Below are positions 11,562 through 31,900 of a stretch of 52,653 nt of DNA, one piece after another. The stretch is from an uncultured Candidatus Bathyarchaeia archaeon. GTDB lineage: Archaea > Thermoproteota > Bathyarchaeia > Bathyarchaeales > SOJC01. Each line of letters opens with the position of its first letter. The first letter of the stretch is position 1. The translations under genes were made by a program, and so were the position numbers. Under the pieces are notes generated by a model. That model searched no databases, was not told the DNA's origin, and saw nothing but the letters and a program-made list of their open reading frames with translations. The DNA lies in the NCBI GenBank assembly GCA_964348215.1, contig CAYGBS010000001.1, positions 1 through 52,653 of the forward strand, in the 5' to 3' direction.

Positions 11562-11661
11562 GTAAAATCTCTACGTGTGAGACATAAAGCCAGAAATCGA
11601 AAGCGTCGAATGATGGCATGGATCTGAGCATTTTGCGCACAATCAAAACAAGGACTGAAAA

Positions 11662-12786: not shown

Positions 12787-12809
12787 AATGCTGCTGTTTC
12801 ACAACGGCG

Positions 12810-14387
12810 TTATTTTACTCCCGCAATACGACTAAACAAGCTAGCGATCCATCGAAGATTCGAAGGAAGATAATCGCTTAATAATTCTATGTCTTGTTTC
12901 TTTACAGCTTTTAAAGCAATCAGAGAAAGAACGTACACAGCTGCTCCTACGGCCGCATAAATGGGTAGCTGACGCAAACGCAGGACGAGAAACTGGTACG
13001 ATGAAGGGCTGAGGGCCCCTCTTAGAACTTCCAATGCAATGATTGATAGAACCATGAATATGGAAGCTGCAGCTGACTTCCATAGAGCTTCTTTGTCGAA
13101 TTCTATCCTAAGAGACAACCAGAGTACATATGCTCCCAGGCCGAATCCTGCGAGCGCAGCAAAAAACCTTGCGAAGGCGACGCCTGCTAGACCCGCATTT
13201 AAGTGTGCCAAGACAATGTAGGAAAGAACCCCTTCTGAGACAATTGAAATCATCGTGATTGAAGAGGCCACTTTTGTCCTTCTAAGGGTATATAACGTAG
13301 GAAGAATGGCCGAGCCCAAAACAGTTGGAAGAGAAGCCATACACATGACTGCCAATGGAACCACGGCATCTACAAACCTAACAGTTGCAAACAGAACAAT
13401 TATCGGATAAGCCAACGTTGCCACCAATAGAGATATGGGAAAACCCAAAAAAGCAGCGTAGCGAGTAGAAGTCCTAAAAGCGTCTCCTAGACTTCGAACT
13501 CCTTTAACCGAATACAACTCAGACAACTTAGGGAAAAGCGAAGCAATTATCGCCGTCGAGACCAGGTTGGGAACAACGGAAGCTCTAACAGCAAGATTAT
13601 ACACTCCGAGTGCTTCAATCCCCAAAAAAGGAAATACTAGAATCTGATCTACCCAACCAACAATGAAAGTCAAAAGCGCAGAAACATAAATCGGGAAGGA
13701 AAACGCGAGAAGTGGTTTTAGCTCATGAACCTGTGTCGAGAATTCAAAGTAACGAAACGTTATCAGAAAAGCAACAAGGCATACTAAAGTGAGAGCAAAG
13801 ATCCAACTTATGACTATCCCAAGGACGCCAAACCCTGCATAGACGAGAGTTATGGCAAGTGTGTACTGAGCCACGGTATACAAGATGCCTATAGCTGCAA
13901 TTTCACGCATTCTTTGTAGCCCTTGGAGAAAACCCAACGATTGAAAATAAAAGATTTGAAGAGCAGAAGATATAGGAATAAGTTGGAAAAGGATAACTGA
14001 CGTTGCGAGAGTACTGGCAAACAGTCCTGCTAATACAAGAAGCGAGACGACTATGATCAGTGAGGTGACAACAGAAACCTGCAAAACACGAGTCACTACG
14101 GATTTCGCTTCATCTATTTTTCCCTGAGCGATGTAATGTGCTATGTATCGAACAGAAGCGGCTCTAAGCGCGAAAATCCCCAAAGTTGATGTTATTGCTA
14201 AGACAAAGTTCAGGATGCTGAATAGACCGAAATCAGATTCCGTGAACAAAATTTGTCCTGTTATTTCCTTTGTATGTAACAGGAACCAGACATAGAGTAC
14301 TCCTAGCGCCGCGTTTAGAAAGCCTTGGATGAAAATGAAGGTTGCTCCCCGCGCAACGTGTGTTTGCGGGCTTATAGTCTCAGTCAA
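12810..14387 (-). CDS. Polysaccharide/oligosaccharide flippase (MOP/Wzx family)
   Basis: 525 aa, hydrophobic throughout with roughly 12-14 TM segments. Lies in a glycan cluster. Confidence 0.7.
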   Translation of the reverse strand: MTETISPQTHVARGATFIFIQGFLNAALGVLYVWFLLHTKEITGQILFTESDFGLFSILNFVLAITSTLGIFALRAASVRYIAHYIAQGKIDEAKSVVTRVLQVSVVTSLIIVVSLLVLAGLFASTLATSVILFQLIPISSALQIFYFQSLGFLQGLQRMREIAAIGILYTVAQYTLAITLVYAGFGVLGIVISWIFALTLVCLVAFLITFRYFEFSTQVHELKPLLAFSFPIYVSALLTFIVGWVDQILVFPFLGIEALGVYNLAVRASVVPNLVSTAIIASLFPKLSELYSVKGVRSLGDAFRTSTRYAAFLGFPISLLVATLAYPIIVLFATVRFVDAVVPLAVMCMASLPTVLGSAILPTLYTLRRTKVASSITMISIVSEGVLSYIVLAHLNAGLAGVAFARFFAALAGFGLGAYVLWLSLRIEFDKEALWKSAAASIFMVLSIIALEVLRGALSPSSYQFLVLRLRQLPIYAAVGAAVYVLSLIALKAVKKQDIELLSDYLPSNLRWIASLFSRIAGVK

Positions 14388-14432
14388 TAGGCATCTTCAC
14401 CATCTTGACACAGTAGATTACCTTTTACAGAT

Positions 14433-15440
14433 TTAAACTGCACGTTTAAATCTCCAGGGATTATCTACCCTGAAGAAGTCGTCTTTTGCTAAATGGCGCC
14501 ACCACGATTTATTTTTCAGATACCAATCAACTGTTTTTTCCAAACCTTCAGAGAAGACGAAGTTTGGCTTCCAACCAAGCGCTCTCACTCTAGTCGTATC
14601 CAATGAATATCTACGATCGTGGCTCGGTCTATCTGAAACGAATGTGATTAGACTCTCAGGTTTCTTTAGAGTTCTCAGTATTTCTTTCGCCACCTCTATA
14701 TTCATACGTTCCTCGCCTGAACCAATGTTGTATATCCCTCCAGCTTTGCCTTTCTTAGCCACCAAATTTATCGCAGCGCAGTTGTCTATTACGTAGAGCC
14801 AGTCTCGCATCTGCTTTCCGTCGCCATAGATAGGTAGTGGCTGGTCGCCTATGGCCCTCAGTATTAACTTCGGTATGAGTTTCTCAGGGTATTGGAAAGG
14901 TCCGTAGTTGTTGGAACTGCGAGTTACAACTACGGATAGTCCGTATGTCTTGTAGAAGGCCAGAGCGATGTGGTCGCCTGCTGCTTTGCTTGCGGAGTAC
15001 GGACTTGACGGGTTTACTGTGTCTGTTTCTTTAAAAGACCCTTCCTTTATGCTACCGTATACTTCGTCCGTGGAAATTTGGACAAATCTTTCAACATCGA
15101 ATTTTCTTGCAGCATCTAAAAGAACATAAGTTCCAAACGCGTCGGTCAAGACAAAGGAGCCAGCCTCTACAATGCTTCTGTCAACGTGGGTTTCAGCGGC
15201 AAAATTCACGACCAAGTCAAATTTTTCTCTTGTAATCTGTTCTACTGCTTCTCTGTCTCGAATATCCCCTTGAGTGAACCTGTAACGCGAATCGTCTTTT
15301 ACATCTTGCAGATTTTCTAGTCTACCGGCGTAGGTGAGCAGGTCGAAATTGGTGATCTCTACGTCGTCGTAATCTGATAACATGTATCTTATGAAGTTGC
15401 TGCCAATGAAACCCGCTCCGCCTGTGACTAGGACCTGCAT
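14433..15440 (-). CDS. rfbB: dTDP-glucose 4,6-dehydratase
   Basis: MQVLVTGGAGFIGSNF ... YSASKAAGDH (YxxxK) ... DRRYSLD. The start is placed at the ATG after the rfbC stop; the track ORF extends to 15482. Confidence 0.9.
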   Translation of the reverse strand: MQVLVTGGAGFIGSNFIRYMLSDYDDVEITNFDLLTYAGRLENLQDVKDDSRYRFTQGDIRDREAVEQITREKFDLVVNFAAETHVDRSIVEAGSFVLTDAFGTYVLLDAARKFDVERFVQISTDEVYGSIKEGSFKETDTVNPSSPYSASKAAGDHIALAFYKTYGLSVVVTRSSNNYGPFQYPEKLIPKLILRAIGDQPLPIYGDGKQMRDWLYVIDNCAAINLVAKKGKAGGIYNIGSGEERMNIEVAKEILRTLKKPESLITFVSDRPSHDRRYSLDTTRVRALGWKPNFVFSEGLEKTVDWYLKNKSWWRHLAKDDFFRVDNPWRFKRAV

Positions 15441-15448
15441 TCCCTGTT

Positions 15449-15925
15449 TCACCCGTGTTTTAGCCAGGGTGCAAGTTTCCAATCATAGGGGATTTTGTCA
15501 GTGTCTGGTGGTAATCGGTGTTCATCTGGTTCTTTGTAGTTGTACAGATTGGTGGGTACATTCATGACGAGAGCAGCTCCTTCGCTTATGGTTTTGAACC
15601 CATGCCAAATTCGCGGCGGTATTTTCACGAGCATGGGGTTTTTCTCGCCGATGACAAACTCGTTGATTTCTCCCTTAGTTCTCGAATTCTCTCTGCCATC
15701 GCACAGAACAAGTTTAACCATTCCTTCTACGCAAGCTATGTTGTCTGTTTGCGTTCTATGCATGTGCCAAGCCTTCACCACTTGCGGATAAGCTGCTGTT
15801 ACGTATGCTTGTCCAAATCCTTCGAAAAGTTCCCAATCGCTTCTCAGGACTTCCATCAGCCAACCTCTTTCATCGGCTATCAGCTTCAGCTGCCGTGCAA
15901 CTACTCCGTCTATCACTCGTAACAC
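15449..15925 (-). CDS. rfbC: dTDP-4-dehydrorhamnose 3,5-epimerase family cupin (short form)
   Basis: DERGWLMEV ... AWHMHRTQ ... KIPPRIWHGF. Sits between rfbA and rfbB. Confidence 0.7.
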   Translation of the reverse strand: MLRVIDGVVARQLKLIADERGWLMEVLRSDWELFEGFGQAYVTAAYPQVVKAWHMHRTQTDNIACVEGMVKLVLCDGRENSRTKGEINEFVIGEKNPMLVKIPPRIWHGFKTISEGAALVMNVPTNLYNYKEPDEHRLPPDTDKIPYDWKLAPWLKHG

Positions 15926-15926
15926 T

Positions 15927-16997
15927 TCACAAAACTACTCTTGAATACTCTCCTACAACAAGTCTATGCCCTTTCGGGCTTTTCTGATTAGTCGTCAACG
16001 TTGTGCCGGCTCCTATGAGGCTATCAGTTATTTTACCCTCAATTTCTATAGAACAGTCGTCCATGACTATCGAGTTTTCTATTTCGCCCTCATCGATTTT
16101 CACGTTGTTTCCTATGCTTGTGTAAGGACCTATGTAAACACGTTCCCCTATGACTGATTTTTCACCGATTATGACCGGTCCCCTTACCAAAGCACCCTGC
16201 TTGATAACGGTCTCTTTTCCTACCGATACCCTTCCTTGGACCGATGATTTTCCTTCAACTGCACCATCTATTTTCTTTCTTAGGTCGTCTAGGATCAAGC
16301 GGTTTGCTTCCAGTATGTCTTCCACCGTTCCTGTATCCTTCCACCATCCTGTGACGGACTTGTACCCAACTTTATGTCCTGCATCTAGTAAACCCTGTAG
16401 TGCCTCGGTGATTTCCAGTTCTCCCCTCCAAGAGGGCTTTAAACAATCTATCATGTCGAAGATTAAGGGTGTGAAGAAGTATATGCCTGTTAGGGCGTAG
16501 TTGCTGGGCGGCTCTCTTGGCTTTTCCACCAATTTCACCAGTTTTCCATTTTTGTCAAATTCAGCCACCCCGAACTGTCTGGGGTTTTCAACTTCAGAGA
16601 GAAGTATCATTGCTGCACAGTCTGAAATCTTGAATTCTTTTACAAACTCCGCAATTCTACCTTTCAATAAGTTGTCACCAAGATACACAACGAAAGGGCT
16701 GTCATCAACAAAGTCCTTTGCAAGGCTGACTGCTTGGGCGATTCCCCCAGGCTCTTCTTGGTGAATATAAGTCGTTTCTACCCCGAATTCTTGACCATCC
16801 TTGTAATAGTTTTCGACTTTTTCTGGCAAAATGTCTCCAACTATAATCGCAATTTCATCTATACCTGAATCTCTCAAATCTTCTAAAACGTACTGGGACA
16901 TGGGCTTGTTTGCCACGGGGATTAGTTGTTTTGGACCGGTATGGGTCAGCGGTCTAAGTCTTGTGCCATGACCCCCATGCAGAATAACTCCCTTCAT
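15927..16997 (-). CDS. rfbA: Glucose-1-phosphate thymidylyltransferase (long form with C-terminal LbH domain)
   Basis: MKGVILHGGHGTRLRPLTHTGPKQLIPVANKPM. ATGA overlap with the rfbD stop. Confidence 0.85.
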   Translation of the reverse strand: MKGVILHGGHGTRLRPLTHTGPKQLIPVANKPMSQYVLEDLRDSGIDEIAIIVGDILPEKVENYYKDGQEFGVETTYIHQEEPGGIAQAVSLAKDFVDDSPFVVYLGDNLLKGRIAEFVKEFKISDCAAMILLSEVENPRQFGVAEFDKNGKLVKLVEKPREPPSNYALTGIYFFTPLIFDMIDCLKPSWRGELEITEALQGLLDAGHKVGYKSVTGWWKDTGTVEDILEANRLILDDLRKKIDGAVEGKSSVQGRVSVGKETVIKQGALVRGPVIIGEKSVIGERVYIGPYTSIGNNVKIDEGEIENSIVMDDCSIEIEGKITDSLIGAGTTLTTNQKSPKGHRLVVGEYSRVVL

Positions 16998-17878
16998 TTT
17001 GATTCCGCCCATTTTTTATTCATCTCCTTTAAACCTTGCGTAACCCCTAAAAGTTCCTTGTTTATCTTTTTTTTGACTTTATCCACACAGAGAGAAGAGT
17101 CCTTTGGCCTTTTCGCTGTCCAAGCTTTCAATTCCCGCATTTTTATTGGCTTTATAAGACTCTCATCCAAGTCAAAGTTTTCAGCGATCTTCAAGGCAAA
17201 GCCGTATCGGCTTATTCGCTTGCTTCCAGCTGTGTGGTAAACGCCTTCTAATCTCTTGTCGACTATTTCTAGAATGACGTCAGCTAGGTTATCGGCGAGG
17301 GTAGGAGAATTGTAATGGTCTTCCACGACGTCTATTGGCTTTCCTCTGGTCAAGGATTTTATCACCCACTTTGCGAAATTCGACTTCTCGGAGTGCAGGC
17401 CATACAAGACGCTCGTTCGAAGAATCGCGAAGGGTTCACAAATATCTGTAACATATCTTTCCCCCGTCAACTTTGTCAGACCATAGTGGTTTATAGGGTT
17501 CGGCTCGTCATCTTCTGTATAGAGTCCCTTTTTTCCATCAAATACGTAGTCAGTTGAAATGTAGATGATTCTCGCCCCTATCTTATTGCAGGCCTCTGCA
17601 AGAATTCCCGTTCCTTCTGCATTCACTTTTGAAGCGTGGTTCTTGTTAACCTCGCACTTGTCAACATTTGTCACTGCGGCTGTGTGAACTACGATGTCTG
17701 GTTTGACTTTGCTGAAGACCTGCTGTACCTCATCTTCATTTGTGACGTTCATCTTTATCGAGTCTGAAAAAACTGGATGCGTTAAATGCGTCCGACAAAC
17801 TGAGAATCTTTCTTCTGCTCTCTCAGCGATTTTGCTTCCAAGAAGTCCACTCGTACCTGTGACTATCATTCTCTCCAT
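16994..17878 (-). CDS. rfbD: dTDP-4-dehydrorhamnose reductase
   Basis: MIVTGTSGLLGSKI ... YISTDYVFDG ... YGLTKLTGE. RmlD-type SDR. Confidence 0.85.
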   Translation of the reverse strand: MERMIVTGTSGLLGSKIAERAEERFSVCRTHLTHPVFSDSIKMNVTNEDEVQQVFSKVKPDIVVHTAAVTNVDKCEVNKNHASKVNAEGTGILAEACNKIGARIIYISTDYVFDGKKGLYTEDDEPNPINHYGLTKLTGERYVTDICEPFAILRTSVLYGLHSEKSNFAKWVIKSLTRGKPIDVVEDHYNSPTLADNLADVILEIVDKRLEGVYHTAGSKRISRYGFALKIAENFDLDESLIKPIKMRELKAWTAKRPKDSSLCVDKVKKKINKELLGVTQGLKEMNKKWAESK

Positions 17879-17924
17879 TTTCTAGTCCTTCACGAGAAAC
17901 GATTTCGCATTCAACGCAGTCTTA

Positions 17925-18692
17925 CTAGCTTATGTAGGTGGTCTTGTCTTCCTCACCCTTCCGCATTTTCTTTGCATATGTTTCTCTTCGTGCCTCTATC
18001 TGCCGCATTTTCTCCAAAATTTTGTCAGATTTGACAATTTCTTCGTCCAAATGATCCAAGTCAACGGAGATCTCTAGCATTTTCTGCAAAACTTGGAGGA
18101 TGCTTTTCGCAGCTTTTGGATCTGGGAGGTAACCCCGGGTTTCTCCTAAAAGGCACAATGCTGGGATATTCTTGAACTTCGCCATACCGATGAGTAGACC
18201 AGCTGTTCCTACAATGGGGTTTCCAGAGGGACTAGGTGAAGCATCTGCGTTGAGAGCCTTGTTTAGTATTGCAGTATCTGTGGCTGTGGCTATGACTTGA
18301 GGTGTTTCACCGGCTTCCTTACGGTAGCCACCCAATGTAACTATGGTGTCTACTTTGTGTTTTTTGGCGAAGTCTAGGATGGTTTCTGCAATCTCATATT
18401 GACCTTCGATAGTTTGGGCTTGGCTGTCTCCCGTGAAAAGTATTAGGTCGCGGCCTCTCGGATTTTTCCAATAGTGGAACTCGCCACGAAGGAGACGGGC
18501 ATTTCCCTTTTTGTTTACAATGACATAATATGGAAAGTGAGGTGAGTAGAGGAGAGCGAACTTCTCAGCTTTGAGGTGTTTAGCTAGGTAGCGTGTGGCG
18601 ATTCTGCCTACCATTCCTAGGCCTGGGAGGCCTTCTATGAGAACAGGGCTCTCAGGTTTTATTTGGAATTTTTCTTTGATCGTCGTCTTCAT
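17925..18692 (-). CDS. PAC2-family proteasome assembly chaperone-like protein
   Basis: VLIEGLPGLGMVGRIATRYL ... GGY ... GLLIGMA, with a charged C-terminal helix. Conserved neighbour of nop10 and aIF2-alpha. Confidence 0.75.
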   Translation of the reverse strand: MKTTIKEKFQIKPESPVLIEGLPGLGMVGRIATRYLAKHLKAEKFALLYSPHFPYYVIVNKKGNARLLRGEFHYWKNPRGRDLILFTGDSQAQTIEGQYEIAETILDFAKKHKVDTIVTLGGYRKEAGETPQVIATATDTAILNKALNADASPSPSGNPIVGTAGLLIGMAKFKNIPALCLLGETRGYLPDPKAAKSILQVLQKMLEISVDLDHLDEEIVKSDKILEKMRQIEARRETYAKKMRKGEEDKTTYIS

Positions 18693-18859
18693 TTGTGTGA
18701 TTCTTCCTTTCTTAGAGCTATGCGGTTCTTAGCGTACTTGTCGTCTGGCGAAAATTTCGCAGGGTGTGGAATGTGGACCTTGCCACCACAGTGAGGACAT
18801 TTTTTAGTGTGTAAGGTATAGCGGTTACATTTTTCGCATTTTCTGAGAAGCCACACCAT
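18689..18859 (-). CDS. nop10: H/ACA RNP protein Nop10 (56 aa; absent from the ORF track)
   Basis: My translation: MVWLLRKCEKCNRYTLHTKKCPHCGGKVHIPHPAKFSPDDKYAKNRIALRKEESHK. It has a CxxC...CxxC zinc ribbon plus the PAKFSPDDKY motif. Its ATG overlaps the aIF2-alpha stop (ATGA), and its TGA overlaps the PAC2 ATG. Confidence 0.9.
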   Translation of the reverse strand: MVWLLRKCEKCNRYTLHTKKCPHCGGKVHIPHPAKFSPDDKYAKNRIALRKEESHK

Positions 18860-19656
18860 CACTTTTCCCTTTTGAAACTTCCCTTTCCACCAGCTTTCAA
18901 GATCGCTTTTGTAGCTGCTTCTGAAGCCTTTTGAAGAATTGTTTCGGCTTGTTTATAGTTTTCGGCTTCTACCTTCAGACGGTACCTTGGCGACGCAATC
19001 GTGTAAATATGAACCTTTGCTGTGTTTGGGGTTGAGACTCGCTGAGCTGTGTGCAGGGCATCTTTAATTATGTTGACACCGTTTGGTTTGTTGATAGAGA
19101 GCTGTAGAACACCTTTTACTTCGACCAGAGGAGGTCGGATTTTCTCTTGGGCTAACTTAGCCAACGTGTCTGCAATGTCTTGGGGAATGCCAACTTTCGT
19201 CAGTGCATCGGAACCTTGGCGGTTTGCTTCTTCGAGTGCTGTGTAAACGTCACCGTAGGTTTCTTCCATAGGAACGGCTGCTTTTTCTGTTACTTCTTCA
19301 AAAGGTTTGTGGAGTTTTTCAGCAGTGATGCGGAGAAAGGTCTCAGCTTTTCTCTCATGCTTGAAGGCGTAGATTTTGCCTATACGTTGACTTTTGGTGA
19401 CGCGTTTACGGGAGAGATCTATGTGTTTCTTGTTTCGATCGACTCGAAGGACTTTGAGAACGAGCTTTTGGCCTTCACGAACGTGGTTACGTATGTTGCG
19501 AATCCAGCTTGTGCTAATCTCGTTTCGGTGGAGAAGGCCTTCTTTATCGCCGTACTCTTCGAGGGTGACATAGGCGCCATAGTCAGTGACTTTTTTCACC
19601 GTGGCAAGGACAAGTTCACCTCTTTCTGGCCATTCCTGTTTCTGGAGAAGTGGCAT
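18859..19656 (-). CDS. eif2a: Translation initiation factor aIF2 alpha subunit
   Basis: N-terminal S1 domain (GELVLATVKKVTDYGAYVTLEEY), about 265 aa, in the conserved context. Confidence 0.9.
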   Translation of the reverse strand: MPLLQKQEWPERGELVLATVKKVTDYGAYVTLEEYGDKEGLLHRNEISTSWIRNIRNHVREGQKLVLKVLRVDRNKKHIDLSRKRVTKSQRIGKIYAFKHERKAETFLRITAEKLHKPFEEVTEKAAVPMEETYGDVYTALEEANRQGSDALTKVGIPQDIADTLAKLAQEKIRPPLVEVKGVLQLSINKPNGVNIIKDALHTAQRVSTPNTAKVHIYTIASPRYRLKVEAENYKQAETILQKASEAATKAILKAGGKGSFKREK

Positions 19657-19667
19657 TGCTTAGAACC

Positions 19668-19868
19668 TCACTCCAGTTTGGCGGTGATTTCGCCCTTGAT
19701 TTTCGCTTTGCCTCCTGTAGGAATGGCGAGAGTTGTTTGGCATATGTTGCATTTAACGATGTTTGTAGGGTTGCTGAAGACAAGTTGCTCATTACCACAG
19801 TCAGGGCAACGTACTCGCAGGAAGTAGGATCTAGGTTTTGGTATGAGACTTTCCCAGTCTGTGCTCAT
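19668..19868 (-). CDS. rps27e: Ribosomal protein S27e
   Basis: 66 aa, zinc ribbon CPDCGNEQ...CNICQT. Confidence 0.9.
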   Translation of the reverse strand: MSTDWESLIPKPRSYFLRVRCPDCGNEQLVFSNPTNIVKCNICQTTLAIPTGGKAKIKGEITAKLE

Positions 19869-19871
19869 GGT

Positions 19872-20156
19872 TTAGCCTTGACCTCCGATGGTTAGTTTTC
19901 TTAGTCGGATGCCTTTCCTTTGGACTGTATAGCCGCATTGTTTGCATTTAAGCTTGAGAGTTTGTTTTTTGGTCGTTTTGGCGAATCTCTTCTGAAGTGG
20001 CCAGCCTTGGCCGCCGTATCCCTTTTTCTCCCTTTCGTGGCGCCGAGTTCCTAAAGCTAAGGCTCGTCCTTTTCCAGCTTTGTAAAGGCTTACAGAGTGT
20101 TCTGTGTGAGTCTTACATTTCGGACAGTACGTGTTTATTGTCTTCGGAACGTTCAT
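19872..20156 (-). CDS. rpl44e: Ribosomal protein L44e (eL42)
   Basis: 94 aa, CPKCKTHTEH ... KCKQCGY, very basic. Confidence 0.9.
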   Translation of the reverse strand: MNVPKTINTYCPKCKTHTEHSVSLYKAGKGRALALGTRRHEREKKGYGGQGWPLQKRFAKTTKKQTLKLKCKQCGYTVQRKGIRLRKLTIGGQG

Positions 20157-20204
20157 GATTCGTCCACTAGCATCTTGTTGCGTTTAGGTTACACAGAAAC
20201 CAAC

Positions 20205-20212
20205 AATATAAA
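20205..20212 (-). promoter_or_regulatory. Candidate TATA box (TTTATATT on the minus strand) for the rpl44e-rps27e-eif2a-nop10 operon
   Basis: AT-rich box about 50 nt upstream of the rpl44e ATG. Confidence 0.3.
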
Positions 20213-20426
20213 CATTTAATAACCTACATATGACTTTGAGCGCCTCATCATGTGGCAACCCGTAATCTCATAAGCATTAGATCCATGCTTGAGTCATATG
20301 GTAAACGACCGTCATACGAGTTCTCATGCATATATGACGCTGACGGTCAATCAATCTGCGCCTCACAAGACCAACTCAGCTTTGCAAGCCAAACAGAAAC
20401 AGATCAATCACACACGCATGGCAAAG

Positions 20427-21515
20427 TTATTGATTCACACCGTGTTTAGCCCAAATGCAGCAAGTCCCTTCCACAGAAACCATACAAGCTCCTTTTGGTG
20501 ACTCCGGTGTGCAACCATCCATAAACAAGGGACATTCACTCGGTTTAATCTTTCCGATCATAACTAGGTGACATAAACATCCAGGCAAAAGATCGCGTGC
20601 CGATTCCACCTTTACGTTGTGCTTCTTCCGAGCATCCCACTTTTCATATTCACTTTTCAAAGCCAATGCTGAGGCGGGCAACCTTCCTAAACCTCGCCAT
20701 TTACCGTCGACAACATCAAAAACACGGTTGATAAGTTTCAAAGCTTTTGGGTTACCCTCCCACTTAACCACCCTTCCATACTCATTCTCTAATCTAGCCA
20801 CAGAATCCCTGAACTGCTGTAGCAACATGTCAACCGCAAATAGAACATCCAAAGGTTCGAAACCAGCCACCACAACCGGCATTCTATAAGCACTTGAAAA
20901 CACCTCGTAGGGTTTCAAGCCGATTATGGCTGAAACATGACCGGGTGCAATGAATCCATCGATATGTAGATCCCCAATTCCTAACAGCAACTCCATCGCT
21001 GGCGGAATCAAGCGATGGGAAATCAGAAAGCTGAGGTTCTTTGGAGGCCCTTTTAGTATCTCATTTGCTGTTGAAGGCGCTGTTGTCTCAAAACCTGTGG
21101 CGAAGAAAGCAAACTCTTTACGTGGTTCTTCTTTGGCCATCTTCACAGAATTACTCACACTGTAAACAACTCGCACATCACCTCCCTCAGCCCTTGCTTT
21201 CGCTAAAGAAGAGCTTGAACCTGGCACTCGCAAAACATCTCCAAACGTCGTTACAGTGACACCTTTCAAAGCTAACTTAACGGTTTCATCAATCTCTGTT
21301 GCAGGCAGAACACAGACAGGTCATCCGGGTCCAGCGATTACCTCTATTTGTCTTGGCAAAAGACTGCGTAGCCCAAAGTGAGTTACTGTCCACTCATGAG
21401 TTCCACAAACATGACAGAATTTCACCGAATAATCAGGAGCAAGCTCCTGAATGTGCGCTGTAATCTGCTTGGCCAACCCCGGGTCACGGAACCCAGCTAA
21501 CTCTTCCAAGTGCAA
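20427..21515 (-). CDS. hypD: [NiFe]-hydrogenase maturation protein HypD, interrupted by a single in-frame TGA at 21321-21323 (Sec candidate or nonsense lesion)
   Basis: ORFs 21321..21515 and 20427..21269 share one frame. The joined translation reads ...FCHVCGTHEW...IAGPG[TGA]PVCVLPATEID...FGDVLRVPGS...FIAPGHVS...; compare E. coli IHGPGCPVCVLP. Confidence 0.85.
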
Positions 21516-21519
21516 ACCT

Positions 21520-21891
21520 CTAAGTCAGCATTTTGATGCGCTTAATTACGCAGTCTTTTCCGCGCACGATTTCAACTGTACCATCGCATTTTGGACACTG
21601 CAGAGTAGGCACCGGGACATGGAAAGCCTTGTCATCAATGTACTTAAAACCGCCTTCGTATCCACATTTTCTGCAGTGTACAGTACCCTCACTTTCTTCA
21701 ACAACAAGTCTTGAGCCTTCCATGATAGTATCTTTTGTCAACATTTCGTACCAAAACATAATCTGTTCAGGGTTCAGAAAAGTCAAAGAACCTATAACAA
21801 GATTTACTTCAACTACTTTCTTTGCTTTTTGTGTATCCGCTTCTTTCATCACAGATTCGACAATTTGCATAGTTATTGAGCCTTCATGCAT
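21520..21891 (-). CDS. hypA: Hydrogenase nickel-insertion protein HypA
   Basis: Starts MHE. Two CxxC pairs (CRKCGY / CPKCDG). Confidence 0.9.
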   Translation of the reverse strand: MHEGSITMQIVESVMKEADTQKAKKVVEVNLVIGSLTFLNPEQIMFWYEMLTKDTIMEGSRLVVEESEGTVHCRKCGYEGGFKYIDDKAFHVPVPTLQCPKCDGTVEIVRGKDCVIKRIKMLT

Positions 21892-21908
21892 TTCTTTGCA
21901 AAGTCCTT

Positions 21909-22598
21909 TTACAGATTCAGAGCCTTAACCACTTTTTTGACGCCTTTGCCGCTGCGGCAGTTGGTGAAAACGACTCTTGCTTCCGGATTAATATCTTCCA
22001 CATCAGCTCTAAGCTTGTTCAAGTCAATTTTCATAGCCTCTGCTAGATCTATCTTGTTTATGACGACAACTTCGGCATCCATGAAAATGAATGGATGCTT
22101 GATAACCATGTAGGGTCCTTCTGTAACGCTGATAACCACTATCCGCTTTTCGCAGCCCAGAGGAAACTCAGCTGGGCAAATGAGGTTGCCGACGTTTTCT
22201 ATGAAGAGCAGATTTATTATGTTGAGATTGAGCTGCTGTAGTGCTTTCTTCACTAGATTTGCGTCTAAGTGGCATTCCTTACCTGTGTTTATTGCTACAA
22301 CTTCTACACTATGACGTTTGATAATCTCAGCATCAATCGTTGTTGTTAGATCGCCTTTGAAAACAGCTATGTTATGGTCCTTCTTAAGAAGTTTAACAAG
22401 TCTTTCGAGCAGTGATGTTTTTCCAGCTCCAATGGAGCCCATCACATCAATTGCTACGATGCCATGCTTTTTCAGGAGTTCTCTGTTTTTCTCAGCCAGT
22501 TTTCGGTTTTCCCTTAGAACGCTCTCCTCCAATTCTAAGTCGAAAATCTCTCCTTCATCAGCCTTCACAACACGTTCAAAACTCTTTGACATGAACAA
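21909..22598 (-). CDS. hypB: Hydrogenase accessory GTPase HypB
   Basis: P-loop GSIGAGKTSLL, plus ENVGNLICPAEF and NKIDL. Confidence 0.9.
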   Translation of the reverse strand: MFMSKSFERVVKADEGEIFDLELEESVLRENRKLAEKNRELLKKHGIVAIDVMGSIGAGKTSLLERLVKLLKKDHNIAVFKGDLTTTIDAEIIKRHSVEVVAINTGKECHLDANLVKKALQQLNLNIINLLFIENVGNLICPAEFPLGCEKRIVVISVTEGPYMVIKHPFIFMDAEVVVINKIDLAEAMKIDLNKLRADVEDINPEARVVFTNCRSGKGVKKVVKALNL

Positions 22599-22611
22599 AC
22601 TCCTATAGATT

Positions 22612-22842
22612 TTACGCGTTTGGCTCTTCCATTTTTAGAATTTCGTTCCACAGCCTAAGTGTTTCATGAGCCTCTTCTTTATCAATTACTTGGATGGCGT
22701 AGCCTGCGTGAACCAAGACGTATTCGTCAACCTTTGCCTCTACCAGTGCAATGTTTACTTCTCTAAGAACACCTTCTCCAAAGTCCACTTTAGCTACGTC
22801 ACCACGGATTTCCTCAACTCTCGCTGGGATTGCCAAACACAT
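22612..22842 (-). CDS. hypC: Hydrogenase assembly chaperone HypC
   Basis: 76 aa, N-terminal MCLAIPARV. Confidence 0.9.
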   Translation of the reverse strand: MCLAIPARVEEIRGDVAKVDFGEGVLREVNIALVEAKVDEYVLVHAGYAIQVIDKEEAHETLRLWNEILKMEEPNA

Positions 22843-22975
22843 TTTCTATCATTTATCGAAAATCTCTCCTCTAATAAATGAGTTTTGGATTACAGCTGTG
22901 GATGTACAAGGATCTTGGATAAAGAAGAATAGATTTATCTTATAGAAAATACTTACATATTATTATTGGGTAAGC

Positions 22976-23236
22976 ATGGATTTTACATTCAGGAGAAGGG
23001 GGGTACTCGCTATTTCCGTAGCCATTTTGAAGGCAGCAAGGAAGGGAATCAGGACTACCCATTTGCTTTACTCAGCTCGTTTAAGTTGTGAACAGCTTAA
23101 CAGATATATTGATCTTCTGGAAGACGGAGATTTTATTGAAAGGCGTGGCAGACTCTATAGAACTACAGAAAGAGGATTTGAGTTGATTGAAGAATTCGAA
23201 TCTTCACCACTAACACGCAGTATACTAACTACGTGA
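22976..23236 (+). CDS. Small winged-helix DNA-binding protein
   Basis: 86 aa: ILKAARKGIRTTHLLYSARLSCEQLNRYIDLLEDGDFIERRGRLYRTTERG, a wHTH pattern. Lies between hypC and hypF on the opposite strand. Confidence 0.55.
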   Translation: MDFTFRRRGVLAISVAILKAARKGIRTTHLLYSARLSCEQLNRYIDLLEDGDFIERRGRLYRTTERGFELIEEFESSPLTRSILTT

Positions 23237-23266
23237 TACAATGAGAACGCCCACATACGTTTCCCC

Positions 23267-23273
23267 TTTTTTT
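23267..23273 (+). terminator. Oligo-T tract (T7), candidate archaeal terminator for the wHTH gene
   Basis: CCCCTTTTTTTCTC lies 31 nt after the stop codon, in a convergent intergenic gap. Confidence 0.3.
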
Positions 23274-23329
23274 CTCGTAAGTAATGTCTATCTAAAGAGA
23301 AGCTTATCTAGACATCATAGGCCTCAAAA

Positions 23330-25615
23330 TCAGTGGCAATGAGCCGCAGACATCGCGGCTGCAAGGGCTTGCCCGAAGGAAATTCCTCCATCTCCAGCGG
23401 GAAGTGTATGGTGGACGTACAGTCTGACGCCATTTTGTTCCACGTGCTTTTTCATGGTTAACATAATGTGTTCGTTGTAGGCTACTCCGCCTGAGAATCC
23501 TACAGCGTTTACTCCTGTCTCTTGCGCTGCTTCAAGTGCTAGTTGAGCTAAGCCTTTTGCCAAATATGACTGGGCGGAGTAAGCCAGGTTAGCAGTGGAA
23601 AAACTATCTTTTGCTTCAAAAACAGCCCTTGCAATTTCAGTTGTGTTAAGAATTCCGCTGGCGATTTCTGGTTCCAGCTTTAACACATCATGGCCATGGC
23701 TCGCCGCTGACTCCAGCTTCATCGCTGGTTCTCCTTGGTACGTTCTTTCATAACAGATGTCCAGAATAGCTGAAACAGCGTCTAAGACTCGTCCGCAGCT
23801 TGTGGTGGTTAAGGACGAGGAGTGCTTGCTGCAAAGCTGGTTGATTATTGTTTGCGCTTCTTTTTCCCTGTAGGGAAGATGTTTGCTGTTTTTTGAAAGC
23901 CAATCTTCAACGGCCACTGTGTCCCCTAGTATTCCCGCTGCCATTCGAAGGGGATAGCGTGTCGCCAAGTCGCCTCCAATTAAAGGCTGCTCTTGAAGAT
24001 GACCTATTCGCTCAAAGCGATTTTTGCTACAATAGAGAACTTCGCCTCCCCAGGGCCTTCCATCTGTCCCATATCCATATCCGTCACAGATTATTCCCAC
24101 AATTTCGTCTAACCCGTACTCTCCCATTAAGGAAAGCATATGAGCGTGATGATGTTGAACAGGCAAGACTGAGCAACCGTTCTTAACTGCAATTTCCTGC
24201 GCTAGCCTTGCAGTGGCAAACTTCGGGTGCAAATCACACGCAATCATGTCAAGCCTGACGTTTGTCAGAGTCATTAGGTGACGAATCGTGTTCTTCAGGA
24301 ATTTGAAGGTTTCAACCTTCTCTACGTCGCCTATGTATTGGGACACAAAGGCTTTGTCGCGCAATAGAATGCATGAAGTTACGTTTTCGTTTGCACCTAC
24401 GCCTAGTACGCATTTGCCAAACGATTTTTTCAGAATGAGGGGTTTTGGTGCATATCCACGTGATCTGCGGATGAAACATGGTTTTTTGTTATGTAGTCGA
24501 AGGACTGAGTCATCGCATCTTTGAGCGATCACCCTGTTGTGAAGTAAGAAATAATCCACCGTAGAGTGGTACTTCTTCAAAGCTTTACCATCGTCGATGA
24601 CTATCGGTTCGCTCGGGTGGTTAGCACTTGTCATGACAAAGGCTGGCTCTCTCACTTTATCAAACAGCATTACATGTAAACCGGTATACGGCAGCATTAC
24701 ACCGATGTTGTGCAAGCCTGGCGCAATTAATTCTGAGAGGTAATAACTTTCTGCTTTGTCAAGGAGCAGTATAGGTCTGGTATGTGATGATAATTTCTCT
24801 TCTTCTTTGACGCTAACACTTGCGAAAGTGCGAACAGTGTCTAAGTCTCGTGCCATAACCGCAAAGGGTTTGTGGGCTCTATGCTTAACATGCCTGAGTC
24901 TAAGGATAGGCTCATGTTTAGTTGTGGCGGTCGCTACATGAAAGCCGCCATAGCCTTTAATTGCAAGTACATATCCATCCTCCAGTAAACGTCCAGCTTC
25001 CCGTATTGGATCCTTTGAAGAAAGAAGCCGGCCTTCGTTTGTCGTTAAGTATACTTTCGGTCCACATTCAGGACAGGCCATAGTTTGTGCGTGGAACCTT
25101 CTGTTGGCAGGATCGGCATACTCATCTTTGCAGAATTCACACATCTCAAAATTCTGCATTGTGGTGTTTTTCCTATCGTAGCGCAGTTTGCAGATTGTTG
25201 TGTAGCGAGATCCACAATCTGTGCAAGTAATAAAGAAGTAGTTATGTCTCGGGTTTGTTGGATCACGCAGTTCCTTTAGGCATTCGTCACATGTGGCGAT
25301 GTCTGGTGGAACAACTGAGCCTATTAGTTCTTTTGTTTCCGAGCTTTCAAGAATCGTGAATTCTGCGAGAGTTCCTTTTTCCTTGGAATATCGTACAAGC
25401 GTTTTGTAAATGCGTGCTTGGGGTGGCTTCTCCTTTCTCAAGTCGTCTAAAAAGTGTTTCATAGCCTGCTTGCTGCCTTCCACAACTATTTCGACTCCAG
25501 CGTCGCCGCGATTTCTCACATAGCCCTTCAAGCCATTTGCCGTAGCTATGCGGTAGATGAAAGGACGGAATCCTACGCCCTGAACGATGCCTAGTACTTT
25601 GACCTCTGCGCGCAC
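23330..25615 (-). CDS. hypF: Carbamoyltransferase HypF
   Basis: 761 aa. Acylphosphatase domain (VQGVGFRPF), two CxxC-x18-CxxC zinc-finger motifs, then YrdC-like and Kae1-like domains. GTG start. Confidence 0.9.
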   Translation of the reverse strand: MRAEVKVLGIVQGVGFRPFIYRIATANGLKGYVRNRGDAGVEIVVEGSKQAMKHFLDDLRKEKPPQARIYKTLVRYSKEKGTLAEFTILESSETKELIGSVVPPDIATCDECLKELRDPTNPRHNYFFITCTDCGSRYTTICKLRYDRKNTTMQNFEMCEFCKDEYADPANRRFHAQTMACPECGPKVYLTTNEGRLLSSKDPIREAGRLLEDGYVLAIKGYGGFHVATATTKHEPILRLRHVKHRAHKPFAVMARDLDTVRTFASVSVKEEEKLSSHTRPILLLDKAESYYLSELIAPGLHNIGVMLPYTGLHVMLFDKVREPAFVMTSANHPSEPIVIDDGKALKKYHSTVDYFLLHNRVIAQRCDDSVLRLHNKKPCFIRRSRGYAPKPLILKKSFGKCVLGVGANENVTSCILLRDKAFVSQYIGDVEKVETFKFLKNTIRHLMTLTNVRLDMIACDLHPKFATARLAQEIAVKNGCSVLPVQHHHAHMLSLMGEYGLDEIVGIICDGYGYGTDGRPWGGEVLYCSKNRFERIGHLQEQPLIGGDLATRYPLRMAAGILGDTVAVEDWLSKNSKHLPYREKEAQTIINQLCSKHSSSLTTTSCGRVLDAVSAILDICYERTYQGEPAMKLESAASHGHDVLKLEPEIASGILNTTEIARAVFEAKDSFSTANLAYSAQSYLAKGLAQLALEAAQETGVNAVGFSGGVAYNEHIMLTMKKHVEQNGVRLYVHHTLPAGDGGISFGQALAAAMSAAHCH

Positions 25616-26130
25616 TTGTTTGTACTCCTTTTCTGAATTGCAGTTTTGAGACCCAAAATACTTTGCGTTTTCAGTGTCGTAGCGTTGTGGAATTGATCGC
25701 TGAGGAGATTGGCTATTTCGACGTGTAGTACGTGATTGACGGACAAAACATTACGGGTTTTTCCTGTAGTTTTGTTTGAGATATATATCGGTTTTCGAAA
25801 TAAGTCCTTTATTAAGATTTACTATAGCTTATGTTTTAGGCGGGACCTGTGAAAAAGCTTAAGGGGCAACAAACTGTCGACTTGCTTGCTCTTCCACAAA
25901 AAGAAAGAATACGTCTTTGCAAAGAGATCCGTAACATTCTTCAGCAAAGAGTCTTCAGACGAAAGGAATCTGCAACGGAAAGCTAATATAGAAAAGCAAC
26001 GGTCTTGTGGACGCCGAGAGATGTCCGCGAAGAACCTAAAATCCTATCTCATATGGGTCAGCGACTATGGATTATCAAATTACTCAGTTCAGTTGTGTTG
26101 ATACTGTTTCCCAACATGTCTTTCGTTTGA

Positions 26131-28164
26131 TTACACTAGGGCAAATACAACAATGAGCGGGGCAAAGACTGAAGCAACAAGCGACATAACTGTGATCATT
26201 GTGTTTAACGAGGGGCCTGCAGTGTCTTTAAATGGGTCGCCCACAGTGTCGCCTATGACCGCAGCTTTGTGGGCATCTGAACCTTTGCCTCCAAGTTCTC
26301 CTGCTTCAATATACTTCTTAGCGTTGTCCCATAGGCCGCCAGAGTTTGCCATTAGCAAAGCAAAGATTAAGCCTGAGAATATAGTGCCGCCTAGGTAGCC
26401 TCCTAAGGCTTCAATTCCCCCTGCAAAACCTACTATCAAAGTGGCAGCGATTGTAACTATGCTAGCAGGCATCAGTTCTTTCAAAGCTCCTTTTGTCGCA
26501 ATATCCACGCATTTTGCGTAGTCAGGTTTTACTCCTTTTTTTCCTTCCTTTAAGCCAGGAATTTCCCTGAACTGTCTACGGACCTCTTCTATCATTATGA
26601 AAGCGTTCTTTCCGACACTGAGCATGACCATAGCTGAGAAGAGCGGTGGCATGGCTATACCTATAAGGGCACCTGTTAGAACTAGGGGGTTCATCAAGTC
26701 GAAGCTGATGATGTTTCCAGTTGCCCTCTGAATAATTTCTTGATAAGCTGCAAGCAATGCAAGAACGGTAAGCCCTGCAGCTCCAATCGCGAAACCTTTT
26801 GTTATGGCTTTGGCAGTGTTACCTGCAGCGTCAAGACGATCCGCGATATCGATAACTTCTTCCTCCATGCCAGCTTGCTCTGCAATTCCTTTAGAATTGT
26901 CCACTATTGGACCGTATGCGTCACCGGCAACAATCATGCCTACTATTGAAAGCATTCCAACAGCACTCATTCCAACTCCATAGACCCCAAACCCTGGGCC
27001 TAAGCTGTTGCAGATGAAGTATGCCACTGCAGATGCAATGCCTATGCCGAGGAGGGGTGGAAACATGCTGATTAGACCATAAGAGAAGCCGGATATGATG
27101 TTAATCGCAGCACCAGTCTGGGAAGACTCGGCGGTTCTTTTCGCTGGCAATCGATCTATGGACGTGAAATAATCAGTAGTGATACCGATTATGATGCCGG
27201 CAATTAATCCAACTGTGAGTGCTCCCCAAATTTCCACTGGGTATGCCAAATGGTAGACAATTAATAACGTGAGAATAATGAGGATAGTGCAAGTGAAGTA
27301 TGTTCCCCAGTTAAGAGCCTTTCCAGGATTTCCTTCTTTGCCGACTCTTACTACCGCTACTCCAATTATTGAAGCAATTATTCCTAACCCTGCAAATACA
27401 AGGGGCAGATTTGTGTAAGCCCCAGCATCTCCTAAAGAAGATCCTAAGATCATTACTGCAACGATGCTGGCAACGTAAGAGTCGAAGAGGTCAGCGCCCA
27501 TTCCAGCCACATCACCGACGTTATCACCGACATTGTCTGCAATTACAGCGGGGTTTCGAGGATCGTCTTCTGGAATTCCCATTTCAACTTTTCCAACCAA
27601 GTCAGCACCAACATCGGCTGTCTTAGTGTATATCCCTCCACCTGCTTTGGCGAACAAGGCCATCGCGCTGGCTCCGAAGCTGAAACCTAACACCAGTTCA
27701 GGGCTACCTGTAAGAAAGTAAACAACCGAGACTCCTAAGAGTGCTAGACCCACTACAGAAAGCCCCATCACTGCACCTCCTCGGAAAGCTATTGGAAAGG
27801 CTTTGTTTAGTCCCTCGCGAGCAGCATTGGCAGTTCTTACGTTGGCTCGTATGGCAACTTCCATTCCCAGGAAGCCAGCAAGGGCGGAGCAAATTGAACC
27901 GAAAATATAGGCGGGTCCGATTTCGATACCCATATCCATATAAATGCCAAGGGCAACTGTCAAGATTGCTGCCATGATAGCTACGAAGACTGCTAGTGCC
28001 ACGTACTCCCTTTTGAGAAAAGCTCTCGCACCTTCTTTGATTGCATCAGAAATCTCCTGCATTTTTGGTGTTCCGCTGCTTTTGCTGTTTACGTAGAAGT
28101 ATAGATATACCGAGAAAACCACGGCAGCTAACGCTGCTATAGGTGCAACTAAAATCCAAGTCAT
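26131..28164 (-). CDS. hppA: Membrane-bound H+(Na+)-translocating pyrophosphatase
   Basis: About 677 aa and polytopic. Motifs [29 protein letters not shown] and [12 protein letters not shown] prefer ATG 28164 (AAGGTGA 8 nt upstream) over the track GTG at 28176. Confidence 0.9.
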
Positions 28165-28339
28165 TGCCACGTTCACCTTTTAGATAGCTTCATGACTTAC
28201 CATGACCATACTTTTAACATTTTCGAAAGGTTCTGCCCTCCCTCTATCCTAATCAAACACTAGGAATTCACGATTTGGTTACTGAAAAAACCGATTGCGG
28301 GACTTTCGAAGTGGTTCTTTAAGGCAGATCAAAGAGCTT

Positions 28340-28759
28340 TTAGATCGGCTCTATCGGCTCTCTCGGCCTTTGTCTTCGTCTCTTCTCAGCTTCCTCTAAC
28401 ACCTTGCTCTCCTCAGCCTCTTTAAGCTTGGCCAAGGGTATCAGTTCCTTTAACTTCTGGGCAAGTTTTTCTGATTCGTGAGCCTCTAGAGGGATAATAA
28501 TGTCTCTTCGTAGTGGAATCACCAGTCTCAACCGGCCATTATCGTCCACTTTCACAGATTCCACTTCGTGTAACGCGATGTCTAGTGGGATTATAGTTTG
28601 AAATAGAACTCCTACGCTTTCTCTCAGCATAGGGTGAGCCTCAACTACGTCTTCAAGCTCTTTCTTGGCTCCTTCCTTCAAGTCTACTTCGAGTACGTCT
28701 TGATGAAGCTTGACAACAAAGTGAGGCTTGTCAACTTTCAAGACTAGGGTTTCAGGCAT
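28340..28759 (-). CDS. Hypothetical protein (beta-rich N-terminal part, charged helical C-terminal tail)
   Basis: 139-aa ORF directly downstream of the 1101-aa gene. I recognise no motif. Confidence 0.4.
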   Translation of the reverse strand: MPETLVLKVDKPHFVVKLHQDVLEVDLKEGAKKELEDVVEAHPMLRESVGVLFQTIIPLDIALHEVESVKVDDNGRLRLVIPLRRDIIIPLEAHESEKLAQKLKELIPLAKLKEAEESKVLEEAEKRRRQRPREPIEPI

Positions 28760-28904
28760 ATCTATCCCATCTCCATTAGTTGCATTTATTATCCGTGTTG
28801 TGAAGTTAAGCTTTGCCCTAAGTTACTGCAAGAGCCTGTATGATTGAAGAAACTATTACTTAGGACTGAAAGCAAACTTCCCGATGTTTCATCTTGAAGA
28901 ACGG

Positions 28905-31900
28905 CTAACCGGGACCTCGCAGCCAACCACGTATTCCCAGTTCTTTTACAGTTACCGTTACCTGTTCAAGCTGGCAAGACTTGTGTTCCCCAACTTCATC
29001 CATATACTGAATTTTCGGTGTGAAAGTAAATCTTCCTTTCCTTTTAGGCTTTAGTGTGAGCCTCATCTCCTCTGTTGCAAGTGCAGCCAATTTTCTCCCC
29101 TTTAAGTTAAGTATTCCGTCATTAACTACACATCTCTTAGGCCTTTCTATGAGGTTAAATCCTTCCGGAACTATTTCTTCCATTTTAATCAGAAATGCAG
29201 CGTTCTTTCCAAGATTGGCAAGTTGAATCTCCAAGCCAAAGGTTTCACCCACTGCAACCTCTAGCTTGTGCGCAATTAGATTTGCTTGAATAAATGCACG
29301 TTCAAACTTCAGCAAACCAACAGGCTCTTCCACAGTCAGGCCCGGTGCAGACATTATGCTGGTACTTGATGCTTCAGAAGGCACTCCGACAAGTTCCCTC
29401 AAGGACAATGCGAATTCGCTTTTTTCTTTCACTTCTCTCAAAATCTTGAGAACCTCGCTCTTTTTGCCGGTGTGCCCTGCTGTTTCGTAGAGTCCGGCTG
29501 ACCGTTCAAGACATTTCTCGGCGAGAAGGTAGATCTTCATCTTCTTTTCAGGGTCAATCTCTATTTCAGCACTACTCTTGTAGTTATAAGCATCAAACAG
29601 AATTCCTGTGGCGCTTGTCCATATTGAAGCATTCTCAAAGCCAGCTTTCAAGTAGTAGTTAGCCGCGCTCTCAAGGAATTTCTTTGCTTTAGAGAAATCA
29701 TCTTTCTCTCTTTTCTCTTCAAACATGGTTCCATGTTCCAATGCCTTGCAGAAAGCACTGTTGCCCGAAGCTAGCAAGACTGTTTTGTTTTTCGTGCTGT
29801 GTTCCTTTGCTTTAAGAAACAACTCTGACGACTCGCGGTAGAGTTCAGGTGACGCTCTTCCGTCAGCCATCTTCATCTTTTGCCATGCACGATACATAAA
29901 AGCAAATGCCCTTATTTCTTTTCGATCAATTCCTGTCCCCATTGCTTTTAGAATTTTATCGAAAATTGTAGCAGCTGAATCATATTTTTCAGCGCTTTCA
30001 ACATGATCTCCTTTGCGGTCATATATTTTCGCTTCTTCTACGTTTGACCTCGCAAGGCAATAATCCTTTCTCAGTATAGAGGCTTTACTAAGTTCAATCG
30101 CCTTCTCCTTTTCGTCCAGATTTTGGATCTTCTCGATCTGCCTGTCGAAAGCTTCTTTAGCTTCCTTGAAAAGTTCAGCTGCTTTTTTGAAGGCTCCTAT
30201 TGACTCGACGTTACTTTCTTTCCTACTCCAATCTTCTGCCTGTTCAAGAAGTGACCATGCAGAGAAGTTAGAAGATAAATAGTTCCACAAATGTGAGGAT
30301 CTAAGAAGGTTTGCGGTTTTCTCGTAACGTTCCATCGCGGAGAGATATTTTTCGTGCAAGTGGGCATCTTTTGCTCTCTCAATTTCACTCCAAGCTTTCA
30401 TGTAAGTTGCATAATCGAGATAGAAATCTGCGAAATGAGCGATTTTTTGAGCCGCATTCTTGTATTCTGCGAATGCGTTTTCGAACTCTTCTGCAGCCTT
30501 GCGCTGTTTTCCTAAGAGGTCTAAACCCTTTGCCATTTTCCAGTAGGATTCGGCGACACGGCTTGACAGGTCGACTTTCTTAAATCTCTGAGTTGCATCT
30601 TCATAGATTTCAATTGCTCTAGTCAGGGTCGCCTTGTCTTCAGTAAGTAAGTAAAGCTCATTAAGTATTCCTCCAAACCAGTCTTCAAATCGTGCGAAGG
30701 CAGCGATGAGCGTTGGCACAGGGCGAGACAATATCCATCTTCTACACCTTGACAGGCAATCCTCCATGTCCGAGGCAGCACTTTTTAGAAGAGCTATCTT
30801 TTTGTCTCTGTCTGTTTCAACTCTAGCTAACTCTGCCTTTATTAAGCCTTCATAGTTTTTGCCGACACCGCGAGTCCAATCATTTGATGGAAATACAGTT
30901 TCCACAATCTTGTTGTATCCTTCCCTGTGAATGAGAGCTTCTTCGAGCAGCTCCACTTTTTCAGCCTTTCCAATTTCAAGGTCGAATCGCGCCCGAGCAT
31001 CTAGAGCTTTGCTTAGTGCATGAAGATTCGTGCCAGTGGCGTCGGGGGAACCTGAACGAGATGCGTGCTCTAACCCTTTACGCCCGATTTCCACTGCCTT
31101 TCTTAGGAGAATGCGTTTTTCTTCTGATGTGACTTCTACATTGCGTGCCATAGAGGAGTAGCTTTCCGCGTAGTAGGAGTAGACTTGTGCAATGAACAAG
31201 TCATTGGAGACCAACTGAAGGTATTGGTTGGCATCTTGAGCGTATTTGATGATCTTTCTATGCCCCTCTTTCTTTACGTCGGGATCCTCCTCTCTGAGCA
31301 TCATCCAATTGGTGACAAACGCAAGGACATAGGACGCGATACCTTTCAGGTAGTTATCTTTCAAGGTCTTTCCCTGTTTCAGCATCTCTCTTGCATAGTT
31401 AAGCGAGGATTCAACTTCTTCCGTAAAAAAGAGCGTAGAGAAAGCTGCTGCCCAGTTTGACATGGCTTTGCAGTAGGGATTGCTAACCTCCCTGGAAAGC
31501 TCCAACGCCTTCTTTGAGTAACTCACACTTCTTTGGGAAAGCTCTTTTCTTCTCTCCTTTTGCTCACTGATGTTTGCCGCATACCAGCTTTGAAGGCTGG
31601 CTACGGCATAGGCGCGTACGAGTTCACTTTTGTTCTTAAGCCTCGACAAAACTGCAATTGCCTCGTCAGCACATTTGATTCCCTCTTGAGCCACCATCCT
31701 TATCTCCCTCCAGTCAGATGCAACATACAATTTCTCAAAGTGACACAGCAGTAGATCGTTGCATATCTCCGCGTAACCTTGGTCATCCGCAGCATTCTTA
31801 TATGCCTCTAAGCTCTCACTTCCAGACACACAACACTCTTCAAGCATTTTTCTTCTTTCAGGAGCGGTAGAGGCTAACCAAGAAGTCAAGTAAGCGGCAA

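Follow-up and report, generated by a model that had tools for sequence, protein, structure and literature searches.

A TGA at the first GPGCPVC cysteine of a Bathyarchaeial hypD gene is very probably a recently derived nonsense allele, not a selenocysteine codon

An interrupted hypD gene within the hyp cluster

The stretch of DNA that we analyzed (the window) comprises 52,653 nucleotides of contig CAYGBS010000001.1 (assembly GCA_964348215.1), from an uncultured Candidatus Bathyarchaeia archaeon. Its minus strand carries at 20427..21515 a hypD frame (PF01924) of 362 codons with an internal TGA and, at its end, the terminal TAA; the frame begins with the TTG at 21515 or with the TTG at 21509 that is called in sibling assemblies. 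When 21515..20427 is translated in one frame, the sole interruption is the TGA at 21321..21323 (...QIEVIAGPG*PVCVLPATEID...). This codon separates an N-terminal HypD fragment of 64 codons bearing the CHVCGTHE motif (21324..21515, minus strand) from a remainder of 297 codons plus stop (20427..21320, minus strand), and PF01924 was recorded on both fragments.

Read directly from the window, positions 21332..21312 of the minus strand are GGA CCC GGA TGA CCT GTC TGT. These seven codons constitute a GPG-[TGA]-PVC motif (21312..21332; G60 P61 G62 C63 P64 V65 C66) in which the TGA takes the place of the first cysteine of GPGCPVC, Cys63 in the numbering of the 360-residue protein and C69 in Escherichia coli. 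With a cysteine placed at the stop, the window HypD aligns to Thermococcus kodakarensis HypD (PDB 2Z1D) over residues 7-360 (E = 9e-94), with GPGCPVC in register. The CHVCGTHE, GFETT, and PGHVSAIIG motifs are all present in the frame, and cysteines at 311, 326, 333, and 350 have the spacing of the C-terminal CX14CX6CX16C Fe-S ligands. A preliminary description of this DNA had proposed that two minus-strand open reading frames share one frame and together give a full-length HypD, and that the TGA replaces the first Cys of GPGCPVC; the single stop in the 362-codon frame and the alignment to 2Z1D bear out the first proposal, and the sequence itself, with the same in-register alignment, bears out the second.

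Directly upstream on the minus strand, Pfam identifies intact hypA (21520..21891; PF01155, E = 2.8e-27), hypB (21909..22598; PF02492), and hypC (22612..22842; PF01455), and also an intact hypF with six HypF domains (23330..25615), in agreement with the earlier statement that the hypC-hypB-hypA-hypD operon is otherwise undamaged. On the 3' side, a spacer of 270 nucleotides (20157..20426, minus strand) lies between hypD and rpl44e, and the minus-strand genes downstream of hypD belong to the ribosome and to translation; none is a selenoprotein gene. The spacer could be aligned only with that of one near relative (L005) among the relatives compared. A TATA-like TTTATATT box that lies in the spacer ahead of rpl44e is kept in L005 and presumably serves as promoter for the ribosomal-protein genes that follow. 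The spacer also contains an AUGAUGA element (RUGAUGA, C-box or k-turn-like) at 20245-20251 of the minus strand, likewise kept in L005, for which a matching D box was not seen there. Both the AUGAUGA element and the TTTATATT box may be part of the leader that precedes the rpl44e-rps27e-aIF2alpha genes.

Elsewhere in the window, an HD-domain ORF (49504..48983) and a DUF2110 ORF (48979..48200) lie in one frame with a single TGA between them at 48980-48982 of the minus strand, and these are probably two abutting genes. An ORF of 1101 residues at 28905-32210 (minus strand) has no Pfam match, and for another of 933 residues at 33383-36184 (plus strand) the sole matches are a PqqD-like domain and, at the C terminus, DUF2207.

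Sequence variation among sibling assemblies

The nearest proteins to the window HypD are the HypD proteins of Candidatus Bathyarchaeota/Bathyarchaeia MAGs. One of them (P0001; 360 residues, PF01924), encoded on three contigs, is full length, carries an uninterrupted GPGCPVC, and is otherwise 100% identical to the window HypD. A sibling contig (L001/L002; GCA_012975005.1, JABAOC010008394.1) aligns to window positions 31509..10427 with 99.886% identity over 21,083 bp (24 mismatches, no gaps); its codon at the site is TGC instead of TGA, and it shows zero differences in the 270-nucleotide spacer 3' of hypD. The TGA recurs in a second sibling contig (L003/L004; GCA_012974965.1, JABAOF010006264.1), whose hypD was called as a 280-residue fragment (P0121) from the TTG at 21269. 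The codon is thus polymorphic: the GPGCPVC redox pair is intact in L001/L002 and fails in the window and in L003, where its first Cys is TGA. Within hypD, the TGA and TGC alleles have one synonymous difference besides the stop codon. Because the two alleles are too recent for decay, the otherwise undamaged reading frame is uninformative as to whether the TGA is a selenocysteine (Sec) codon or a lesion.

Across a 21.5-kb alignment of the window, L002, and L003, we counted 57 substitutions, of which 32 are synonymous, 22 are missense, 2 create stops (nonsense), and 1 is intergenic, a pattern that fits real, selected strain variation and not random error. Mosaic blocks are visible in window positions 1-21561 relative to L002 and L003 (e.g., 2493-3001, 3638-3671, 4379-4423, and 16056-16145), and they suggest recombining strains of one population. 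Several L003 genes (GT4, DUF354, and amidohydrolase) are broken by indels or N runs.

The hypD TGA is linked to a second stop. The gcvT gene (1..873, plus strand) contains an in-frame TAA at 307..309, a stop present in L003 as well, while L002 reads TAC (Tyr) there; that gcvT carries a one-step TAA had been remarked on before, and a TAC-to-TAA change relative to the sibling is indeed what we see. The two stops lie 21 kb apart, and both are third-position C-to-A changes on the coding strand. Two stops among approximately 20 haplotype-specific SNPs are more than purifying selection normally leaves, and this coincidence tells against the nonsense-allele explanation. To our knowledge, neither Sec insertion nor any other recoding occurs at TAA, and the gcvT TAA cannot be Sec. 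A general reassignment of stop codons (TAA to Tyr and TGA to Cys), which the third-position C-to-A origin of both stops brought to mind, was considered and rejected, as the genes of the window end normally, hypD itself on TAA and gcvT on TGA.

The main technical alternative, weighed within the verdict that the hypD TGA is not Sec, is that the true codon is TGC and that its A is a consensus or sequencing error (e.g., oxidative damage of the G-to-T/C-to-A type at low coverage) carried by two assemblies of overlapping data. The C-to-A character of both stops is what such damage would leave, and among the 20 differences specific to the haplotype, 8 are G<->T or C<->A exchanges. The P0121 fragment, moreover, is recorded only from NCBI assemblies, whereas Logan assemblies, made from raw runs, contain the Cys form as well, and L002 and L003 are draft-quality scaffolds with N runs and small indels. 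The window and L003, however, differ at 37 substitution sites in 21.5 kb and yet have both the hypD TGA and the gcvT TAA in common, and the remaining differences are 57% synonymous, as selected biological variation would be. We infer that the TGA is biological and regard a consensus artefact as unlikely, though by no means negligible.

The codon in wider relatives

Beyond the sibling assemblies, Cys63 and the whole GPGCPVC motif are invariant in 120 of the 120 nearest HypD proteins. At all nine relative hypD loci for which the DNA was read (~79-90% amino-acid identity), the codon is TGC or TGT. The comparison of sister genomes that the preliminary description had recommended thus came out on the side of cysteine, with TGC in the 99.9%-identical sibling, TGC or TGT at the nine loci, and TGA never found beyond L003, and the TGA is the derived state.

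The position of the stop might seem to call for a special explanation. Cys codons, however, account for 11 (23%) of the 47 one-step changes that could create a TGA in hypD, and invariance among the 120 nearest homologues holds for 10 of the 11 HypD cysteines; because of these two proportions, the landing of the TGA on an invariant Cys is not statistically striking.

We also scanned 241 million metagenome contigs with the pattern GPG-TGA-PVC-[VI..]-x-P-xxx-ID. The scan returned six matches, all of them otherwise-open hypD genes whose products are 31-43% identical to the window protein, and it brought up no Bathyarchaeia-type hypD with TGA at the first GPGCPVC Cys from those contigs. A looser pattern applied to species-representative genomes matched at least 119 loci, and the one hypD among the matches listed belongs to a Campylobacter MAG (L065). 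Three unrelated hypD genes on metagenome contigs (L128, L130, and L132, with 62%, 36%, and 54% GC, respectively), each a singleton, are open throughout apart from a single TGA at the same Cys.

Recoding signals in the window

The preliminary description had named archaeal Sec use as known from only a few lineages, a premise that is corrected by the report of a Sec system in "diverse Bathyarchaeota" (PMC8762117). The system in those archaea includes a PSTK-aSelB fusion (PMC8762117, PMC9499178). Because some Bathyarchaeota have a Sec system, lineage alone cannot exclude Sec at this locus.

The window itself was without detectable recoding signals. Rfam found no SECIS element in the whole window or in the hyp region (E <= 10), yielding two chance-level matches only. 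We wrote two relaxed descriptors of our own from the description in PMC4989117, one for the canonical SECIS of archaea, with its GC-rich stem, GAA/A bulge, and GC stem of 3 bp, and one for the kink-turn SECIS of the Lokiarchaeota/eukaryote AUGA..AA..GA type. Neither had a match on the strand of the hyp mRNA anywhere in the window, although the SECIS of Bathyarchaeia is undescribed and a new type could escape both descriptors. The sole descriptor match lies on the opposite strand, within an unrelated gene. The search of 20157..20426 for a SECIS element that had been suggested earlier was consequently negative by Rfam and by both descriptors. The fold of the 270-nucleotide spacer has no extra stability relative to shuffled sequences (z = -0.30). 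A candidate SECIS hairpin in the spacer (GACCGUCA/UGACGGUC) was rejected, as it has alternative pairings and is broken without compensation in L005. The genes 3' of hypD vary among relatives, being phosphoribosyltransferase-like, Band-7, or rpl44e; since these neighbors differ, no 3' element is conserved with hypD.

Genes of the decoding machinery were likewise not found within the 52.6-kb window: there is no PSTK, SepSecS, aSelB, or SPS, and no tRNA-Sec, the single tRNA present being a tRNA-Arg.

TGA-bearing hypD genes in Bacteria

A lineage of high-GC (~70%) Bacteria (L127, L129/L131, L139-L144, and P0123) has a TGA at the first GPGCPVC Cys of hypD, at 6295-6297 of the L127 locus and at 6178-6180 of the L129 locus, on the minus strand in both. 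L127 and L129/L131 share 81.5% nucleotide identity (18.5% divergence) and both have the TGA. Downstream of it, 199 codons are identical between the two, alongside 76 synonymous and 44 non-synonymous differences, and dN/dS for the pair is 0.15 (305 codons, dS 0.48), compared with 0.24 upstream of the TGA. The L129 form recurs across many samples, on at least 18 contigs; its frame is always split at the TGA, and a hypX-like gene follows it. The nearest Cys-type relatives of these genes are from Alphaproteobacteria, at 76% identity. Since hypD of L129 also has TGA as its terminator, TGA is not a general sense codon in that lineage.

Because the TGA has been kept across this divergence with purifying selection acting downstream of it, the lineage would appear to translate through the codon, most plausibly as Sec. 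The stability of hairpins downstream of the UGA in TGA-hypD equals that of shuffled sequences and of Cys-type controls, so a search for a bacterial SECIS by this measure was negative. Neither a tRNA-Sec nor a match to any Rfam family was found near the TGA-hypD loci, and no sel genes were shown there. Our search of the literature found no published description of HypD as a selenoprotein. On the comparative pattern of conservation, a genuine Sec-HypD with a UxxC pair probably exists in that bacterial lineage and not at the window locus. The reasoning from the UxxC layout that was first offered for the window thus gains support in general from the conserved bacterial lineage and loses it at the locus for which it was made. 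If confirmed, Sec-HypD would provide independent evolutionary evidence of redox or nucleophilic chemistry at the Cys pair during the assembly of the cyanide or CO ligands, a role that a 2025 review describes as still not directly demonstrated (PMC12134894).

The Campylobacter example is of another kind. In the MAG of Campylobacter sp. RGIG5201 (L065), hypD has the same lone TGA, at 133-135, and the rest of the gene is intact; the 98%-identical cluster to which it belongs, which comprises 196 sequences (P0243), has Cys. By this comparison, the L065 TGA reads either as a lesion private to that MAG or as a product of faulty assembly.

The window TGA as a probable nonsense allele

These comparisons allow the Sec interpretation of the window to be weighed as a whole. 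It would have a Bathyarchaeial system decode the UGA and thereby place a UxxC pair beside the [4Fe-4S] cluster of HypD, and the TGC and TGA alleles would then be a Sec/Cys polymorphism. In its favor, C69 and C72 of E. coli HypD form a thiol-disulfide exchange pair between the [4Fe-4S] cluster and C41 and the window TGA falls on the first Cys of just such a pair (PMC12134894). Sec machinery has been reported in diverse Bathyarchaeota (PMC8762117), the TGA allele occurs in two assemblies, and the high-GC bacterial lineage maintains a TGA at this exact codon under purifying selection. Against it, the sibling with TGC has an identical hypD 3' UTR; neither known archaeal SECIS type was detected, and the sole candidate hairpin is not compensated in L005; no other Bathyarchaeial TGA-hypD emerged from protein searches or the pattern scan; and the strand continues downstream into genes of the ribosome and of translation, none of them for a selenoprotein, with the allele itself linked to the gcvT TAA. 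Were the Sec interpretation correct, the archaeon would need an atypical PSTK-aSelB system together with a SECIS type that is still undescribed, and the window would hold the first archaeal Sec-HypD. We consider the Sec interpretation very improbable, and a first archaeal Sec-HypD at this locus is accordingly something that we scarcely expect. The candidate selenoprotein reading of the preliminary description is not upheld, given relatives with Cys and no SECIS-like element, whereas the plain nonsense lesion that it offered in the same breath agrees with the TGC of siblings and relatives, the lack of a SECIS-like element, and the linked gcvT stop.

We are confident that the window TGA is not a Sec codon but a nonsense allele of recent origin, carried by a single haplotype within a natural population of Bathyarchaeia. 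In the scenario that we propose, a third-position C-to-A change on the coding strand, one step from the ancestral codon, would have converted TGC to TGA. The resulting stop would end HypD after 64 residues. Cells with the allele would then be unable to build the Fe(CN)2CO moiety of the [NiFe]-hydrogenase cofactor, save through low-level leakage at the UGA, and HypD function would most likely be abolished in them.

The extent of that leakage is the subject of a refinement of the nonsense-allele explanation, rather than an alternative to it. The codon context is UGA-C, a weak termination context in bacteria and eukaryotes, and near-cognate tRNA-Cys or tRNA-Trp might occasionally read through it, so that a trickle of partly wild-type HypD would let the allele persist. 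The presence of the allele at consensus level in two assemblies would be in keeping with such persistence; the linked gcvT TAA, however, needs no explanation of this sort, and we think it rather improbable that leaky termination accounts for the allele.

For annotation, the window would be a case of a strain-level knockout or of a flaw in draft assemblies, and both hypD and gcvT of this assembly should be marked as disrupted genes, with no recoding proposed.

Comparison with known systems

The window frame shares with the HypD proteins of T. kodakarensis (2Z1D, 3VYR-3VYU) and E. coli the CGTHE, GPGCPVC, GFETT, PGHVS, and CX14CX6CX16C motifs. It departs from both in the window haplotype, where the first Cys of GPGCPVC is a TGA, whereas the sibling haplotype encodes a normal HypD. 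The likeness to redox selenoproteins of the CxxC type (UxxC) is one of position, as the window TGA stands where homologues have a redox-active Cys. Unlike the archaeal selenoprotein genes that have a SECIS in the 3' UTR, however, the window gene has no SECIS match and its TGA is not kept in orthologues, and, again unlike selenoprotein genes, its TGA segregates within a population of 99.9%-identical sequences.

Among the TGA-bearing hypD genes, those of the high-GC bacterial lineage have the TGA at the same Cys as the window, but there it is fixed across diverged sequences, whereas the window TGA is confined to a single haplotype. The Campylobacter gene (L065), with its private TGA in a draft MAG, is the case nearest to that of the window. 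Campylobacter is a bacterial genus that uses Sec. A TGA that is fixed across divergence points to recoding and a private TGA points to a lesion, and the hypD gene of the window falls into the second class.
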